Shown here: one piece after another, positions 948-60,116 of the stretch
Numbering within the stretch: position 1 is the stretch's first letter
How the letters are laid out: each line of letters starts with the position of its first letter
From: a phage
Length of the DNA stretch: 64,000 bases
Sequence record: PZ386965.1
Direction: 5' to 3' (one strand)
Program-made: the position numbers and the translations under genes
The notes under the pieces: generated by a model
Told to the model about the DNA's origin: nothing
Seen by the model: only the letters and a program-made list of their open reading frames with translations
Databases searched by the model: none

Positions 948-983
948 TTTATTCTCCAGATGTTTAAGTTGTTTGTTGGTACA

Positions 984-1017
984 GGTCTATAATAACATAA
1001 CCTGTACCAAAGTAAAC
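984..1017 (-). promoter_or_regulatory. sigma70-type early promoter
   Basis: Minus strand reads GTTTAC-17 nt-TATTAT; spacer lies inside a 10-bp perfect inverted repeat (TTGGTACAGG...CCTGTACCAA). Confidence 0.45.
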
Positions 1018-1021
1018 ATTT

Positions 1022-1393
1022 TTATTTGATTTTTGTCCACTTAGCTGAATCAATAACACCTTTTGCTTTAATCTTCTCAATTAATGACTCTGCGCGATTT
1101 CTGGCATTTTCGTACCATACAACATCTTCAGAGTAACCAGTTTCTTCATCTTCGTAAGTTTTAGAACGAATACAGCCATAAACTGTAGAATTCAGGCGGT
1201 AAATTTCACCAGTGAAAAAGTTTTCGATTTCGATATGATAACAAAAATCGTCTGAAGGGCCATCAGGAGTTGTACAATAAACCACATCACCTTGAACTGA
1301 ACGAACCATCCACTGTAACTCGTTAACAACTTGAGATTTATATCCATCATGGTCACGGCATTTAATTGTAGCATTTAAATTGATAGTGTTCAT
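1022..1393 (-). CDS. hypothetical early protein (123 aa)
   Basis: ORF track; preceded by early-promoter motif at 1431-1463; N-terminus resembles neighbour 582-947. Confidence 0.5.
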   Translation of the reverse strand: MNTINLNATIKCRDHDGYKSQVVNELQWMVRSVQGDVVYCTTPDGPSDDFCYHIEIENFFTGEIYRLNSTVYGCIRSKTYEDEETGYSEDVVWYENARNRAESLIEKIKAKGVIDSAKWTKIK

Positions 1394-1999: not shown

Positions 2000-2248
2000 T
2001 TATTTAAGGGTAATAACAAAATGACGTACTGCTTTACGAGCTGCAGAAGCCAAAGGCTTAGCATATTTCAGTTCATCTTTTGCTTCCAGTTCAGAGGCCA
2101 AAGCTGCCTGTACCGGGTTCAGATGTTTGAAATAACGCAGGATTTCCAGTGCTTCGGCTTCAACATCAATCGACGCGCCGTAGTTTTCGTGACCGTTATT
2201 CCATGCGTTTCGTTGCAGTTCAAGAGCGTGTTGTAATTGTTTAATCAT
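2000..2248 (-). CDS. rIII: rIII lysis-inhibition accessory protein (82 aa)
   Basis: 82-aa ORF adjacent to gene 31 as in T4; sequence recognisable as rIII. Confidence 0.7.
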   Translation of the reverse strand: MIKQLQHALELQRNAWNNGHENYGASIDVEAEALEILRYFKHLNPVQAALASELEAKDELKYAKPLASAARKAVRHFVITLK

Positions 2249-55732: not shown

Positions 55733-56392
55733 TTAACCTCGATTCATAAATGCATTAAATATTTGGTCATCAACAGAAATTTCTAATTCGACTTCAATTG
55801 CTTCAACCTTTTCTTCAGGTGGTAATTCGTATCCACACACTACAATTTTTTCATCGATATCAAAATATACAGAAGCAATACGATTAATGTTACTTTCAGT
55901 TAAGTCTAAATCAACATCAACATCTTTTTGACCTACACTTAAAGGATAACTAATACGGGTTATTTTATTATCTTTAACAAAGAGTCCACCAACATACTCT
56001 GTACTACGTTTGAAGTTTACACGTTTCCGAATTGAAAGATATGATACATCTTTACCGTGAGCTCGGCTCATAGGACATAATGAATAGCTAGAATAAGAGA
56101 TGTCAAATCCTACGCCTTCAACATGTGCTAGAGTATCATGAGTAAACCAATTATAGTCGTATGCTAAATCCATTAAATTATAATATGTGAAAGGCACTGG
56201 ATTAACATCATATGTTGTACCTTTAAAATCTGCCCAGGCAACGATTTCGTTATCTTTAACAATTACAAAAATTATACCAATATGGTATCCGTTATTATTT
56301 TCATTCGGTGTTATATTATAACATTGTGCATTAGGAAATTTACCATATTTAAATGGCGCGTTTTTGTGCATATAATAAATCATATTATTCAC
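55733..56392 (-). CDS. hypothetical protein (219 aa)
   Basis: ORF track. Confidence 0.45.
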   Translation of the reverse strand: MNNMIYYMHKNAPFKYGKFPNAQCYNITPNENNNGYHIGIIFVIVKDNEIVAWADFKGTTYDVNPVPFTYYNLMDLAYDYNWFTHDTLAHVEGVGFDISYSSYSLCPMSRAHGKDVSYLSIRKRVNFKRSTEYVGGLFVKDNKITRISYPLSVGQKDVDVDLDLTESNINRIASVYFDIDEKIVVCGYELPPEEKVEAIEVELEISVDDQIFNAFMNRG

Positions 56393-56678
56393 CTGTGATT
56401 TCGGTTACGATATCTTTGTTATCGAAATTAGGGTCACAATACAAAACATAGTTGTACTGCATGATACCGCCAGACTTAAGTTGTTCAACAACTTTATTAA
56501 CCATATTAGGACGGTCTCGTTTAGTGATGTTCATGATATCAGAGAAGATTTGTTGTTCAACATCTTCTTGATTTGCAGTCATTGACCACTCACAGAGGTC
56601 TTTATCATAACCTGCCGTAACTGGAGCCGGTGCACATGATACTGCAAGTAGGATTGCTGCCAATGATAACTTTTTCAT
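56385..56678 (-). CDS. sp: Spackle-like periplasmic protein
   Basis: 97 aa with signal peptide MKKLSLAAILLAVSCAPAPVTA; size and position match sp. Confidence 0.65.
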   Translation of the reverse strand: MKKLSLAAILLAVSCAPAPVTAGYDKDLCEWSMTANQEDVEQQIFSDIMNITKRDRPNMVNKVVEQLKSGGIMQYNYVLYCDPNFDNKDIVTEITGE

Positions 56679-56708
56679 TTTAACTCCTTAGTTGATTTGA
56701 TAGGACTA

Positions 56709-56738
56709 CTATACTATAGTCCATCTATAATGTAAACA
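56709..56738 (-). promoter_or_regulatory. sigma70-type early promoter (sp)
   Basis: Minus strand GTTTAC-18 nt-TATAGT. Confidence 0.4.
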
Positions 56739-56741
56739 AGT

Positions 56742-56990
56742 TTATTCTTTTTCGCGAATAATAATTACTTGTTGAGGCTGCTGAGCCGATTTCTTTTCGG
56801 CAACGATAGACCAAATTAAAGTTCCAATCCAACCAACCATCGTCCAGTTAAAGAGTAAAGATACAAAGAAGATTGCTGTTGTGCTTTTTGTGCCACGAAT
56901 AAGTGCGATTACCCAAGGCAACATGTAAATGATGATTGAACCAATACCTGCGATTAAAACTGCTACTGAACTAGCCACGAATAATTCCAT
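56742..56990 (-). CDS. small integral membrane protein (82 aa)
   Basis: Two or three predicted TM helices by eye. Confidence 0.45.
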   Translation of the reverse strand: MELFVASSVAVLIAGIGSIIIYMLPWVIALIRGTKSTTAIFFVSLLFNWTMVGWIGTLIWSIVAEKKSAQQPQQVIIIREKE

Positions 56991-57051
56991 GTTAATTTCC
57001 TCTTGATTTGTTATGTTTATAGTATCTTGGTTTAACTTTGGTGTAAACCAA

Positions 57052-57420
57052 TTAATTAAATTTGTTTAAACGTTCAATACACTGGACGTAGTTATTCGCG
57101 ATTTGTTTCTGGGTAGGCTCTTTACCAGTTGTTTCAACATAGCGAATAAATGCGATTTCAGTAGCCTGTAGACAATGTTCTTTAACGCGTTGTTCTTTTG
57201 ACATAGCTACAGTATCAGAGTCACGATAACGTTGAGCATGAGCATCAGCTTGAATCATTCGATTACCTACAGTAACCGGGTCTTCCACTTCAACTTTAGG
57301 TTGGTTGTACTGTTTAACATTCGGATTGTAAATCAGTTGGCCAACGTTATTAGGGATAAAGCCATGAGCACCACATCCGGTTAATCCAAATACCATTGCT
57401 AAAGCGATTAATTTTTTCAT
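57052..57420 (-). CDS. lipoprotein (122 aa)
   Basis: ORF 57052-57480 trimmed to MKKLIALAMVFGLTGC lipobox start with AGGAAA SD; promoter motif lies in the untrimmed N-terminus. Confidence 0.5.
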   Translation of the reverse strand: MKKLIALAMVFGLTGCGAHGFIPNNVGQLIYNPNVKQYNQPKVEVEDPVTVGNRMIQADAHAQRYRDSDTVAMSKEQRVKEHCLQATEIAFIRYVETTGKEPTQKQIANNYVQCIERLNKFN

Positions 57421-57448
57421 TTCAATTTCCTCTATAGTTGATAGGTCT

Positions 57449-57478
57449 ATAGTATCACTACCATAGACCCCTGTAAAC
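57449..57478 (-). promoter_or_regulatory. sigma70-type early promoter (lipoprotein gene)
   Basis: Minus strand GTTTAC-18 nt-TACTAT; inverted repeat GGTCTAT/ATAGACC. Confidence 0.4.
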
Positions 57479-57490
57479 AATTATTTTATT

Positions 57491-57631
57491 TTATTCCTCG
57501 TCTTCATGCTCGTAAGCATGTTCTTCAGATTCACGGTCGCAGTCTAAACAAGTCGCATTATCATATGCATCGAAAACAGCTTCGTCTTCATAGACGCTAC
57601 AACCACACACTACACATTCTACTTCTTCCAT
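57491..57631 (-). CDS. small acidic CxxC...CxxC zinc-ribbon protein (46 aa)
   Basis: ORF 57491-57694 trimmed to MEEVECVVCGC... start (AGGAAA SD) just downstream of dmd stop. Confidence 0.4.
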   Translation of the reverse strand: MEEVECVVCGCSVYEDEAVFDAYDNATCLDCDRESEEHAYEHEDEE

Positions 57632-57632
57632 T

Positions 57633-57836
57633 TTAGATTTCCTCTTTACGCCAATCGGATTCAAAAACTTTCTTATCATCAACAAATGCTTCAACTAAAG
57701 CTTTATTTACTTCAGCAAATTGAGAAGTGGCCCGTAGGATTTGGTCTTTATCAGACACGTCCATGGTAACTTCTTTGGTAAACATATTCCCATTTTCAAA
57801 CCAACCAATAAACAACACTTTAGCCATATTTTCCAT
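57633..57836 (-). CDS. dmd: Dmd antitoxin (discriminator of mRNA degradation)
   Basis: ORF 57633-57896 trimmed to MENMAKVLFIGWFENGNMFTKE...; matches Dmd core. Confidence 0.65.
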   Translation of the reverse strand: MENMAKVLFIGWFENGNMFTKEVTMDVSDKDQILRATSQFAEVNKALVEAFVDDKKVFESDWRKEEI

Positions 57837-57837
57837 T

Positions 57838-58155
57838 TTAGATTTCCTCACAGAAGGCCCATTCAGCGTGATAAACTGTAGCACCTTTAGTATCATTCAT
57901 TTGAACTACGTCTACCGGAGAAATTACTCGATAGAGACGTGGTTCACCTCCATAAGAGTGTGCTGCTCGTCCTGCATAAATCTTTGCTAAACCGATATCT
58001 TCAGTAAAGAATACACGATCCAAGTTTTTCTTACGTCCAGTTTCAGACAGAACTCCTGTTTCTTCAGGAGGACAAAGCATGTTTTCGATGTTAGCTGAAC
58101 TACTTGAACCGTGATAAAAAATCTTAAATTCTGCTTTACAATCGATGGTTTTCAT
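57838..58155 (-). CDS. small protein with possible minimal ADP-ribosyltransferase (Arr-like) fold
   Basis: 105 aa; FYHGSSS near N-terminus, VFFTED and LYRVISPVD segments; resemblance judged by eye only. Confidence 0.35.
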   Translation of the reverse strand: MKTIDCKAEFKIFYHGSSSSANIENMLCPPEETGVLSETGRKKNLDRVFFTEDIGLAKIYAGRAAHSYGGEPRLYRVISPVDVVQMNDTKGATVYHAEWAFCEEI

Positions 58156-58181
58156 TTTGTTCTCCAGTAGTTGATAGGTCT

Positions 58182-58210
58182 ATAATAACACAACTACCGG
58201 AGAAGTAAAC
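58182..58210 (-). promoter_or_regulatory. sigma70-type early promoter (Arr-like ORF)
   Basis: Minus strand GTTTAC-17 nt-TATTAT then AGACCTATCAA. Confidence 0.4.
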
Positions 58211-58585
58211 TTAAAAATGTAATTTAGATATATCTGCGTTGATTTCGTTTTGGTTTGCGTCGTATGCAATTAAACGAACCGCTTTAGATGGGTCATTCAA
58301 TGCATAGAAATGATGGAACATTGCTCGAACGATATCACCATTTACGAGTTCTACCTGGATAGGAGAACCTTTTTCGAGTTGGAAATGTTCATAAGCTTTG
58401 ATGGTTCGCAGATAATCAAGTTTTTGATTTCCGGCTCCGACAATTTGTACGATACGTTTGCCCATGTTTTCCATACGAGATACAATAGTTTTAGGGGCAA
58501 GAATAACGTAGGTTGCCAGTGGAGAAACTACTTCAACAGTTGTGTTTTCTGTGATTGCAGTAAAAATTGCTTGAGACATATTCAT
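58211..58585 (-). CDS. hypothetical protein (124 aa)
   Basis: ORF track; own SD and early promoter motif at 58616-58645. Confidence 0.45.
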   Translation of the reverse strand: MNMSQAIFTAITENTTVEVVSPLATYVILAPKTIVSRMENMGKRIVQIVGAGNQKLDYLRTIKAYEHFQLEKGSPIQVELVNGDIVRAMFHHFYALNDPSKAVRLIAYDANQNEINADISKLHF

Positions 58586-58615
58586 AATGTTTTCCTCTTG
58601 GTTGGTGTAAGTACA

Positions 58616-58645
58616 TCATATCATGCCTAGAGGAAGATGTAAACC
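58616..58645 (-). promoter_or_regulatory. sigma70-type early promoter (124-aa ORF)
   Basis: Minus strand GTTTAC-18 nt-TATGAT. Confidence 0.35.
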
Positions 58646-58650
58646 CCGAA

Positions 58651-58668
58651 AGGAGACCGAAGTCTCCT
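58651..58668 (-). terminator. UUCG-tetraloop hairpin after gene 41
   Basis: AGGAGAC-UUCG-GUCUCCU on minus strand; downstream U-run imperfect. Confidence 0.4.
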
Positions 58669-58673
58669 TTTTA

Positions 58674-60116
58674 TTAAAATTTTAACTCGTTGGCTAAGCT
58701 ATCTAGGTCAGCACGTGTTGCTTTGGCTTTACCTACGCGTTCCGTACGATTCACCTCTGCCTGACGCATCTGAGCACCTGCGTTTTCATTTACTGTGTTA
58801 GGTGTGTTCATGCCTTCTTGCTCAATCTCAACCCATTTCTGATTGCCTTTACGTACACCCATCAAGAACTTGTTCCACTTATTCTTATCACCGTATCGTG
58901 ATTTGATTTGTTTGATAAGTTGTTGTTCAGCTTGTGCAAGTTCTTCGGTTTCAATTACGGCCAACATGAAATCTGCCGTTGCTGGTAAACCTGCTGATTC
59001 TGCGATATCACTCATGTTCATGTCTGAAGCATCCCATGCTGCACGTCCTACTTGAGCTGCAGTCCATAGAACTGTTTCAGATTCTACTGCTAATGCACGA
59101 AGTTCTTCTGCGATAGCTTTAACTAATGTGTAGCTATTTTCAGTGTAAACTCTGATACGACAAGACCCACAAATACCTAAGTAATCAACCATGATTACAG
59201 ATGGCACAAAGTTCTTCTTAAGTTTTAACTCATTAAGCAATGCACGAAATGTATTAGCATTAGCTCCACCAGTAGGATACTGTTTAACTACTAAACGTCC
59301 TAATGTGGATTTTGAACGCCATTTTTCCATCTTGGCTTTATATTCAGCATAAGATACGTTACCGTCATCAATATCATCAAGTGATACGTCAAGCATGTTT
59401 GCATCTATACGCTTAGCGCAAACTTCTTCAGCCATTTCCATTGAAATATAAAGAACATTATGGCCTGTTTGAAGATAATCTGCAGCAAGTGAACAAAGGC
59501 CTAAAGATTTACCAACGTTAACACCAGCCATTAAAACATTCAGTGTACCGGTTTCAGCACCACCTTTAGTGATTTTATTCAGAATGTTTAATTTGAACGG
59601 GACCTTACGTGCTTTGTTCAGATAAGAAAGCCAGCGTGCTTCATAGTCTTCCATCCAGTCATGCCCAACATAACTATCAAACGAAATTGAAAGTGCTTGA
59701 CGCATAATATCAGGAATAGCTCCTACGTCAGGCATTTTCTTGTTACGTTGTTCTGGAGGTAGTTCAGCATTAGACTGAATCTCAATGATTTTGGACGTAG
59801 CATTATACATCGCTTTTTGCTGGACATATTTCTCAGTTTCTTTAACCAACCATTCGTGGTCTTCAGGAGTATCAGCCAATTTTTCAATTAGGTCTGAAGT
59901 TCCTTTATATTCGGCTTCAGTTAAAGAACTGTTATCTAAAGCCACCTTTAATGCATTGATAGATGGCATTGCATTATATTCGTTAACGTGGCTCTTTATA
60001 ATTTTAAAGACGTTTTTTGCCGGTCCACGCTCAAAATACTCAGAATCCATATAAGGCCAGACCTTAGAAAAATAAGCCTGGTCATATACTAGATGAGACA
60101 AAATAATTTCTACCAC
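58674..60116 (-). CDS. 41: gp41 replicative DNA helicase (DnaB-like)
   Basis: 480 aa; Walker A ...GVNVGKSLGL... and RecA-like core. Confidence 0.9.
   Translation of the reverse strand: MVEIILSHLVYDQAYFSKVWPYMDSEYFERGPAKNVFKIIKSHVNEYNAMPSINALKVALDNSSLTEAEYKGTSDLIEKLADTPEDHEWLVKETEKYVQQKAMYNATSKIIEIQSNAELPPEQRNKKMPDVGAIPDIMRQALSISFDSYVGHDWMEDYEARWLSYLNKARKVPFKLNILNKITKGGAETGTLNVLMAGVNVGKSLGLCSLAADYLQTGHNVLYISMEMAEEVCAKRIDANMLDVSLDDIDDGNVSYAEYKAKMEKWRSKSTLGRLVVKQYPTGGANANTFRALLNELKLKKNFVPSVIMVDYLGICGSCRIRVYTENSYTLVKAIAEELRALAVESETVLWTAAQVGRAAWDASDMNMSDIAESAGLPATADFMLAVIETEELAQAEQQLIKQIKSRYGDKNKWNKFLMGVRKGNQKWVEIEQEGMNTPNTVNENAGAQMRQAEVNRTERVGKAKATRADLDSLANELKF

Follow-up and report, generated by a model that had tools for sequence, protein, structure and literature searches.

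Results

A small gene between dmd and imm.1

The window analysed here is a 64-kb stretch of DNA from a Mosigvirus (T4-like, RB69 group), in which positions 57000-58700 share 99.6-99.7% identity with the corresponding regions of Escherichia phages LF82-4 and LF82-9 and Shigella phage Shf125875. On the minus strand of this region, the genes follow in the order gene 41 (helicase), orf041c, orf040c, dmd, a mini-ORF (hereafter the mini gene), imm.1, imm and sp, and the mini gene is located between the helicase gene 41 and the primase gene 61 (Table 1). Its ATG lies at 57631 and its TAA stop at 57493-57491, and its translation, MEEVECVVCGCSVYEDEAVFDAYDNATCLDCDRESEEHAYEHEDEE, is exactly the 46-residue product that an earlier sequence-only reading of this DNA had written down. 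That reading had also credited the ORF with its own Shine-Dalgarno (SD) sequence and with a start 2 nt past the dmd stop, and both details were borne out: a GAGG motif is positioned 9 nt 5' of the ATG, and the dmd stop (TAA, 57635-57633) is followed by a single A and then by the mini ATG (TAA-A-ATG), such that the start is the second base past the stop.

Table 1. Coordinates of the features discussed, in the window unless another record or the protein is named. L-numbers are our handles for compared loci; AF2, AlphaFold2; SD, Shine-Dalgarno sequence.
Feature	Position	Strand	Details
orf040c	57838..58155	minus	105 aa; phrog_2110; first gene of the predicted unit; AF2 pLDDT 86
dmd	57633..57836	minus	67 aa; Pfam PF17587, E 6.4e-23; phrog_2102, E 3e-32
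Mini-protein CDS	57491..57631	minus	46 aa; 138 nt coding plus TAA
Junction repeat, copy 1	57831..57849	minus	End of orf040c (..CEEI*), SD, dmd start
Junction repeat, copy 2	57626..57644	minus	GAGGAAATCTAAAATGGAA; dmd ..EEI* and stop, mini SD, ATG-GAA
Early-promoter-like site	58182..58209	minus	TTTACT-16-TATTAT with TG; upstream of orf040c
Early-promoter-like site	57449..57477	minus	TTTACA-17-TACTAT; 14 nt past the mini stop
Swapped module	Window 57491-57836; JS09 (L017) 982-1387		
orf041c, orf040c, imm.1 and imm, window versus JS09			97-99% nt identity
dmd, window versus JS09			68% nt identity, 51% aa
Gene after dmd, window versus JS09			Mini gene in the window; tifA (61.4) in JS09
Mini paralogue, Kanagawavirus-type phages	L006 2093-2236; L012 3135-3278; L016 3138-3281		
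GEEE dual-coded end	L004 ~2090-2110; L005 ~2080-2095; L006 ~2225-2240		SD and overlapping ATG of sp
C4 treble-clef-like finger (predicted)	Residues 1-32 of the mini-protein		AF2
Acidic C-terminal helix/tail	Residues 29-46 of the mini-protein		AF2, lower confidence

Conservation and distribution of the mini gene

Residues 1-46 of the mini-protein aligned with profile positions 1-46 of phrog_13952 (E 2.5e-29, 102 bits). A 100% identical protein, YP_009100579.1, is encoded at the same genomic position in Shigella phage Shf125875, where it is annotated as a "hypothetical protein", and the gene is also annotated as encoding a hypothetical protein in phage 55. In a tblastn search, the mini gene was matched in 70 phage records distributed over several Tevenvirinae genera, with carriers in a subset of Mosigvirus, in Dhakavirus (JS98), in Mosugukvirus (PM2) and in Kanagawavirus (Kosakonia phage 305 and Enterobacter phage Q7622); further carriers are phages of Escherichia, Enterobacter (including CIP9), Salmonella and Yersinia, and the hosts of the mini-carrying phages are exclusively Enterobacterales. 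Only ~70 of the ~610 phage records that bear orf040c contain the gene.

Across the carriers, the protein is 39-47 aa long; residues M1, C6, C9, E15, C28, D30, C31 and E34 are invariant, and E2, E3, F20, D21 and A26 are nearly so. Nei-Gojobori counts, taken on the first 34 codons, gave pS values of 0.6-0.99 (saturated) versus pN values of 0.1-0.3, with a dN/dS of ~0.05-0.2 where it was computable, and the finger core described below is ~80% identical between genera whose gp41 helicases are only 65-68% identical. The sequence-only reading had named loss of the frame in relatives as an outcome that would overturn it, whereas the frame is kept in every relative with the low dN/dS just given. By this pattern of substitution, the mini-ORF is a real coding gene under strong purifying selection, and we regard it as a genuine early accessory gene of Mosigvirus, a T4-like phage, whose product is a 5.3-kDa protein.

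Kanagawavirus-type genomes carry a diverged paralogue in tandem (MRQFTCDDCGVKIPENEV...GEEE). This paralogue, MRQFTCDDCGVKIPENEVHRNETCFGDDGDYCQDCFYENHYDFGEEE, is located directly 3' of the mini gene and keeps both the four cysteines and the GEEE end.

A predicted zinc finger in a highly acidic protein

The mini-protein has five cysteines (6, 9, 11, 28 and 31); the whole family, paralogue included, keeps Cys 6, 9, 28 and 31 without exception, whereas Cys 11 varies. Its two CxxC pairs provide four conserved candidate metal ligands. When all six frames of the 64-kb window were considered, the pattern CxxC-x(8-30)-CxxC was found only in the mini-ORF and in the gp61 primase; because the pattern is so rare in the window and the ORF is conserved under purifying selection in relatives, the mini-ORF is more than a product of chance.

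An AlphaFold2 (AF2) model of the mini-protein, built on an 11-sequence alignment, had a mean pLDDT of 81, with values of ~90 for residues 1-30 and of 53-71 for the tail. In the model, strands at residues 3-5, 12-14, 18-20 and 26-28 precede a helix at residues 29-43, and C28 closes a strand while C31 sits in the first helical turn, which is a treble-clef arrangement. On the basis of this model, the N-terminal part can be predicted with confidence to be a C4 treble-clef-like zinc finger, and the acidic helix that follows it is predicted with less confidence. The earlier proposal of a four-Cys zinc site is well supported by the invariant cysteines and the high pLDDT of the core; the very acidic tail proposed with it proved to be part of a broader property, as 18 D/E residues stand against a single K/R (an Arg), giving a net charge of ~ -17, and the acidity is spread over the whole protein and not confined to the tail. 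The net charge across the family is -8 to -15.

The GEEE codons (GGAGAAGAAGAATGA) that end the mini gene in PM2 and Kanagawavirus-type phages also serve the next gene, as its SD and overlapping start. With this dual coding, the acidity of the C-terminus may in part be imposed at the nucleotide level, by the translation signals of that gene, and not by what the protein does.

Searches for relatives of the mini-protein

Pfam and PADLOC returned no match for the mini-protein and only weak matches for the paralogue, and in the combined Pfam, NCBIfam and PADLOC search of both proteins nothing rose above threshold, the weak matches being to ZZ, UBZ, Zn_ribbon_3 and ECs_2282. The last of these, NCBIfam NF047912 (ECs_2282 family, ECs_2282_CxxC), weakly matched residues 4-36 in 5 of the 11 members, with a best E of 0.0038 and a best score of 17 bits against a curated cut-off of 37 bits. 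NF047912 is a putative zinc-binding family (E. coli O157 Sakai locus tag ECs_2282) that is itself uncharacterised, and its likeness to the mini-protein is sub-threshold.

A profile search of the PDB with the mini-protein gave eS27 (E 0.057) and Rad14 (E 0.099) as the best matches, neither of which was significant. Foldseek against the PDB likewise returned nothing significant (best E 0.21), the top matches being treble-clef structures (PHD-like, RING, the ClpX zinc-binding domain (ZBD), eL24 and HPV E6); against BFVD, the mini-protein's own family alone was significant, and it was followed by many small uncharacterised phage zinc-ribbon proteins at E ~0.01-0.1. When the HMMER profile was searched against 1.84 billion representative proteins, only about five clusters were retrieved, together with a borderline 88-aa tandem-finger protein and a low-complexity match, and no cellular homologue was found among these 1.84 billion proteins. 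The 88-aa protein (P0014, E 7e-4) has two tandem similar fingers (MSEYACDRCG..VP.GSGHYPD.DS.DRICADCA). The family is already catalogued, in PHROG and among GenBank hypothetical proteins, and is uncharacterised; it is a tiny, phage-restricted orphan family.

Several specific assignments were rejected. For the DksA/TraR finger (PF01258), the mini-protein had no match and an hhalign probability of 3.6%, and only 5 residues precede its finger, where DksA/TraR proteins have a coiled coil with an acidic tip; the paralogue matched PF01258 over 11 residues only (E 0.13). The mini-protein did not match the Dmd family (PF17587), to which the neighbouring ORF clearly belongs, and a Dmd-mini frameshift fusion was discarded because the mini gene stands alone in phages without dmd. 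Membership in the TifA (gp61.4) family was rejected as well, since tblastn detected no similarity and the mini-protein, with 1 K/R to 18 D/E, lacks the central cluster of basic residues expected of TifA. Full-text searches of the searchable published literature found no mention of mini-protein peptides, ORF040c or the PHROG identifiers, and nothing on Tevenvirinae zinc proteins in counter-defence.

Duplicated junctions and the insertion of dmd

An exact 19-mer, GAGGAAATCTAAAATGGAA, occurs twice in the window, 205 nt apart and bracketing dmd, against 0 occurrences expected in shuffles, and through this 19-nt repeat the SD/start string of the mini gene is the same as that of dmd. In every locus, the mini ATG is preceded by GAGGAAATCT(A/G)A or something close to it; GAGGAAATCT(A/G)A constitutes the last codons of orf040c (..CEEI*), and the mini gene is stop/start-coupled to its upstream gene in all relatives. 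In Pectobacterium phage PM2, Kosakonia phage 305 and Enterobacter phages Q7622 and CIP9, dmd is absent and the mini gene directly follows orf040c, and the same is true of the metagenomic contigs L012, L016 and L022. One further metagenomic contig (L023) has the order orf040c-dmd-dmd-mini-sp, with three copies of the junction (1562, 1760 and 1970).

Taken together, the dmd-less loci, the 19-nt duplication and the contig with tandem dmd genes indicate that dmd cassettes have entered a pre-existing junction between orf040c and the mini gene, with the SD for the next gene re-formed each time. The junction repeats look like a mechanism for the insertion or amplification of dmd cassettes. In mini-carrying phages, Dmd has the C-terminus ..EEI, which it inherited from this junction as a copy of the end of orf040c.

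In the RefSeq record of Shf125875 (NC_025437.1), orf040c is annotated as a 149-aa protein that overlaps dmd (PI26_gp039, L001 3208-3657). This stretch has 1 nt more in the record than in the window, and one junction copy alone matches the pattern, which suggests a 1-nt indel or a sequencing error at the orf040c/dmd junction.

Predicted transcription unit

The early-promoter-like site upstream of orf040c is the likely promoter of an orf040c-dmd-mini unit, whose three genes are separated by TAA-A-ATG junctions, and the second such site, past the mini stop, appears to mark both the end of this unit and the right-hand border of the exchanged module described below. The promoter-like sites and the coupled junctions support the placement of the mini gene and dmd in one predicted transcription unit. 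In T4, one early promoter drives dmd and the next gene, tifA (PMC9391042). The idea that the ORF encodes a second small inhibitor co-expressed with dmd survives in part: co-expression is upheld at the level of the shared predicted unit, and the mini-protein retains its standing as a candidate inhibitor, but a functional partnership with dmd is not upheld, as the mini gene is kept in genomes without dmd. From the gene content of the compared loci, the link between the mini gene and dmd is secondary.

Promoter/leader blocks (..TATAGACCTATCAACTA.., minus strand) recur at 57435-57461, where the -10/leader sequence of the orf040c site is repeated, and at 58168-58194, before imm.1 and orf040c, and a related leader/start block is found before imm (56973-57026 and 57403-57456). 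These repeated blocks resemble PeSLs, the early-promoter cassettes that mediate modular shuffling in T4-type phages.

Exchange with tifA in the proposed anti-TA island

Comparison of the window with the near-identical Mosigvirus JS09 revealed a sharp difference at the dmd+mini module only (Table 1). The exchanged segment is bordered by the junction on one side and by the early-promoter-like element past the mini stop on the other. The replacement of dmd/mini by dmd/tifA resembles the modular shuffling via conserved regulatory cassettes that has been described in T4-type phages (PMC2839356, PMC4122927). No tifA was found in the window by tblastn; JS98 and PM2 carry both the mini gene and tifA.

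An anti-TA island has been proposed around dmd, tifA and adfA, and the authors of that proposal regarded the other genes there as candidate anti-toxins (PMC9391042). The mini gene adjoins dmd, occupies the tifA slot and is variable among close relatives with flanks that are 97-99% identical. Near the dmd module, at 56385-57420 on the minus strand, imm (Pfam Imm_superinfect), sp (T4_Spackle) and the lipoprotein-like imm.1 (DUF5481) lie together, which gives, beside dmd in the 41-61 interval, a combined exclusion and counter-defence cluster.

The upstream neighbour orf040c

orf040c always lies next upstream of the mini gene, and only dmd cassettes ever come between the two. The best Foldseek PDB matches of its product are all ADP-ribosyltransferases (ARTs), namely Arr (E 6e-3, TM 0.60), Tpt1/KptA, pertussis toxin S1 and ParT; its residues H15, Y60 and E103 do not vary, and the protein is labelled a putative ART in a few GenBank records, although neither Pfam nor NCBIfam gave an assignment above threshold. 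As modelled, the orf040c product appears to be a minimal Arr-like ART-fold protein. The gene is present in ~610 phage records, most of which lack the mini gene and have unrelated genes downstream of orf040c, and its product retains 63-88% identity even in Aeromonas and Acinetobacter phages. In those Enterobacterales phages in which both were compared, its conservation exceeds that of the gp41 helicase (65-68%).

Discussion

The reading that we prefer, with a probability of roughly 40%, is that the mini-protein acts as a zinc-stabilised acidic decoy and thereby inhibits a protein of the host or of a defence system. The mini-protein would be translated from an orf040c-dmd-mini transcript via the same 19-nt initiation region that serves dmd, and C6, C9, C28 and C31 would together coordinate a single metal ion, presumably zinc, within a treble-clef-like finger followed by a flexible and extremely acidic helix or tail. 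The rigid, conserved finger could provide specific docking, the acidic surface and tail could fill a basic nucleic-acid- or peptide-binding site on the host protein, and the mini-protein would work stoichiometrically, as a decoy or inhibitor whose target is most likely a defence or host factor of Enterobacterales. Because the mini gene is kept in phages without dmd, RnlA/LsoA is probably not its target. Its partial presence, the swap with tifA, the tandem copies and the island location point to an accessory gene with an arms-race character; as an argument for a counter-defence role, the island location is circumstantial, because the superinfection-exclusion genes imm and sp lie in the same region.

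Against the decoy reading, none of the searches connected the mini-protein significantly with a characterised inhibitor, a Pfam family, a PADLOC model or a structure in the PDB, and its gene's constant place after orf040c would be explained equally well by a role tied to that enzyme. We tentatively suggest that the mini-protein might found a new counter-defence class, as a decoy that replaces TifA in the dmd operon and neutralises a different toxin or defence nuclease of Enterobacterales, or that it might be the dedicated modulator of the ART-fold orf040c product. As the founder of such a class, it may, for example, mimic an RNA antitoxin or the substrate, RNA or DNA, of its target.

The main rival, in which the orf040c product has the mini-protein as its partner or regulator (an inhibitor, chaperone or specificity subunit), we consider unlikely. 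ParT, DarT and other ART toxins are known to be under the control of small neighbouring partners, the orf040c product has a predicted ART fold, both genes are more conserved than gp41, and, dmd cassettes aside, the mini gene comes directly after orf040c in every locus examined, with stop and start adjacent or overlapping. However, the difference in distribution (~610 records with orf040c, ~70 with the mini gene) argues against a partnership, as do the RB69/JS09-type phages, in which orf040c is 98% identical but the mini gene is missing, and the Klebsiella, Cronobacter, Acinetobacter and Aeromonas phages, in which unrelated small membrane proteins or other genes occupy the slot after orf040c. 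The constant gene order itself can stem from descent alone in T4-like phages.

It is less probable still that the mini-protein is a replication or recombination accessory whose acidic tail binds gp32, gp41/gp61 or partners of the host SSB. The acidic tails of SSB, gp32 and T7 gp2.5 bind DNA-handling proteins, and the mini-protein has an acidic, probably flexible C-terminal tail and a gene located between gene 41 and gene 61; in addition, its best, non-significant sequence likeness is to the XPA/Rad14 finger, which is an RPA-binding module. Nevertheless, T4, RB69 and most T4-like phages lack the mini gene and replicate normally, and the genes that intervene in the cluster are known host-interaction genes rather than replication genes. 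The hhalign probability against XPA was only 12%, and with this value and the Rad14 profile match reported above, membership in the XPA/Rad14 finger family was rejected.

We regard as very improbable the suggestion that the mini-protein mimics the N-terminal ZBD of ClpX and, as a decoy, disturbs the delivery of substrates or adaptors to ClpXP. The two have in common a C-x2-C-x18-C-x2-C spacing followed by a helix, the ClpX ZBD structures 2ds5, 2ds6 and 2ds8 are among the top Foldseek matches (TM 0.57-0.65), and one of the BFVD matches is a small phage protein that carries the annotation of a Clp ATP-binding subunit. The mini-protein model and the ClpX ZBD (2ds5/2ds6), which superimpose with a TM of ~0.6, are both built of a zinc knuckle, a beta-hairpin and a helix that supplies the last ligands from its N-terminus. 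However, the Foldseek E values of these matches are 0.7-1.1 and many unrelated treble clefs score equally, the hhalign probability is 8%, and zf-C4_ClpX is not matched in Pfam, so that membership in this family was rejected; the mini-protein further differs from the ClpX ZBD in that its 46 residues form a protein of their own, which ends in an acidic tail, and in showing no significant sequence or profile similarity to it.

Finally, that the ORF is spurious or untranslated (a chance frame, a regulatory spacer or an RNA element), as its mere 46 codons and its lack of annotation in the GenBank records of JS98, JS10 and IME08 could suggest, is effectively refuted by the conservation analysis, in which frame, length and the four cysteines are kept across genera with saturated synonymous change and a low dN/dS, and it also disagrees with the strong SD that is the same as that of dmd, with the confident AF2 fold and with an Rfam scan of the region, which gave no match to any RNA element.

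The preferred reading, an acidic decoy, concerns the 41-61 interval of T4-like phages, where three genes, dmd, tifA and adfA, have already been validated as anti-toxins. Its position in the tifA slot, the swap and the strong purifying selection make the mini gene a cheap and well-defined counter-defence candidate; if it has no host-specific phenotype, the mini-protein is one more small phage zinc-finger protein. The analysis also clarifies how dmd cassettes come into the locus, by way of a duplicated 19-nt stop/SD/start junction, and flags the upstream orf040c, whose product, a minimal protein with a predicted ART fold, is more conserved than the replicative helicase.

Among known systems, T7 Ocr, T7 Gp5.9, T4 Arn and phi29 p56 are small acidic phage inhibitors that mimic DNA, and they are not metal-binding fingers. 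They and the mini-protein are all very small, very acidic, early and accessory; homology to these inhibitors was not detected in the PDB profile, Foldseek PDB or BFVD searches. The nucleic-acid mimicry suggested in the sequence-only reading would call for surface carboxylates spaced like a nucleic-acid backbone and for binding to a nucleic-acid-binding protein; the mini-protein has a net charge of ~ -17, and its tail is modelled with low confidence. Dmd (gp61.5), the antitoxin to RnlA/LsoA, is likewise small, early and co-transcribed, and its gene has an initiation string in common with the mini gene; in sequence and fold, however, the two proteins are unrelated, and the mini gene exists without dmd. 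TifA (gp61.4), the ToxN inhibitor of T4 and RB69, resembles the mini-protein in being small, in belonging to an early unit and in being encoded in the slot directly after dmd. TifA is a basic, RNA-binding protein (PMC10853763), whereas the mini-protein is extremely acidic with a Cys4 site and has no sequence similarity to it. In its combination of fold and charge, a treble-clef finger with a polyacidic tail, the mini-protein matches none of the characterised inhibitors compared here; in its setting, it fits a known kind, the small accessory phage protein encoded in a counter-defence island, and it is reasonable to regard it as a candidate inhibitor.
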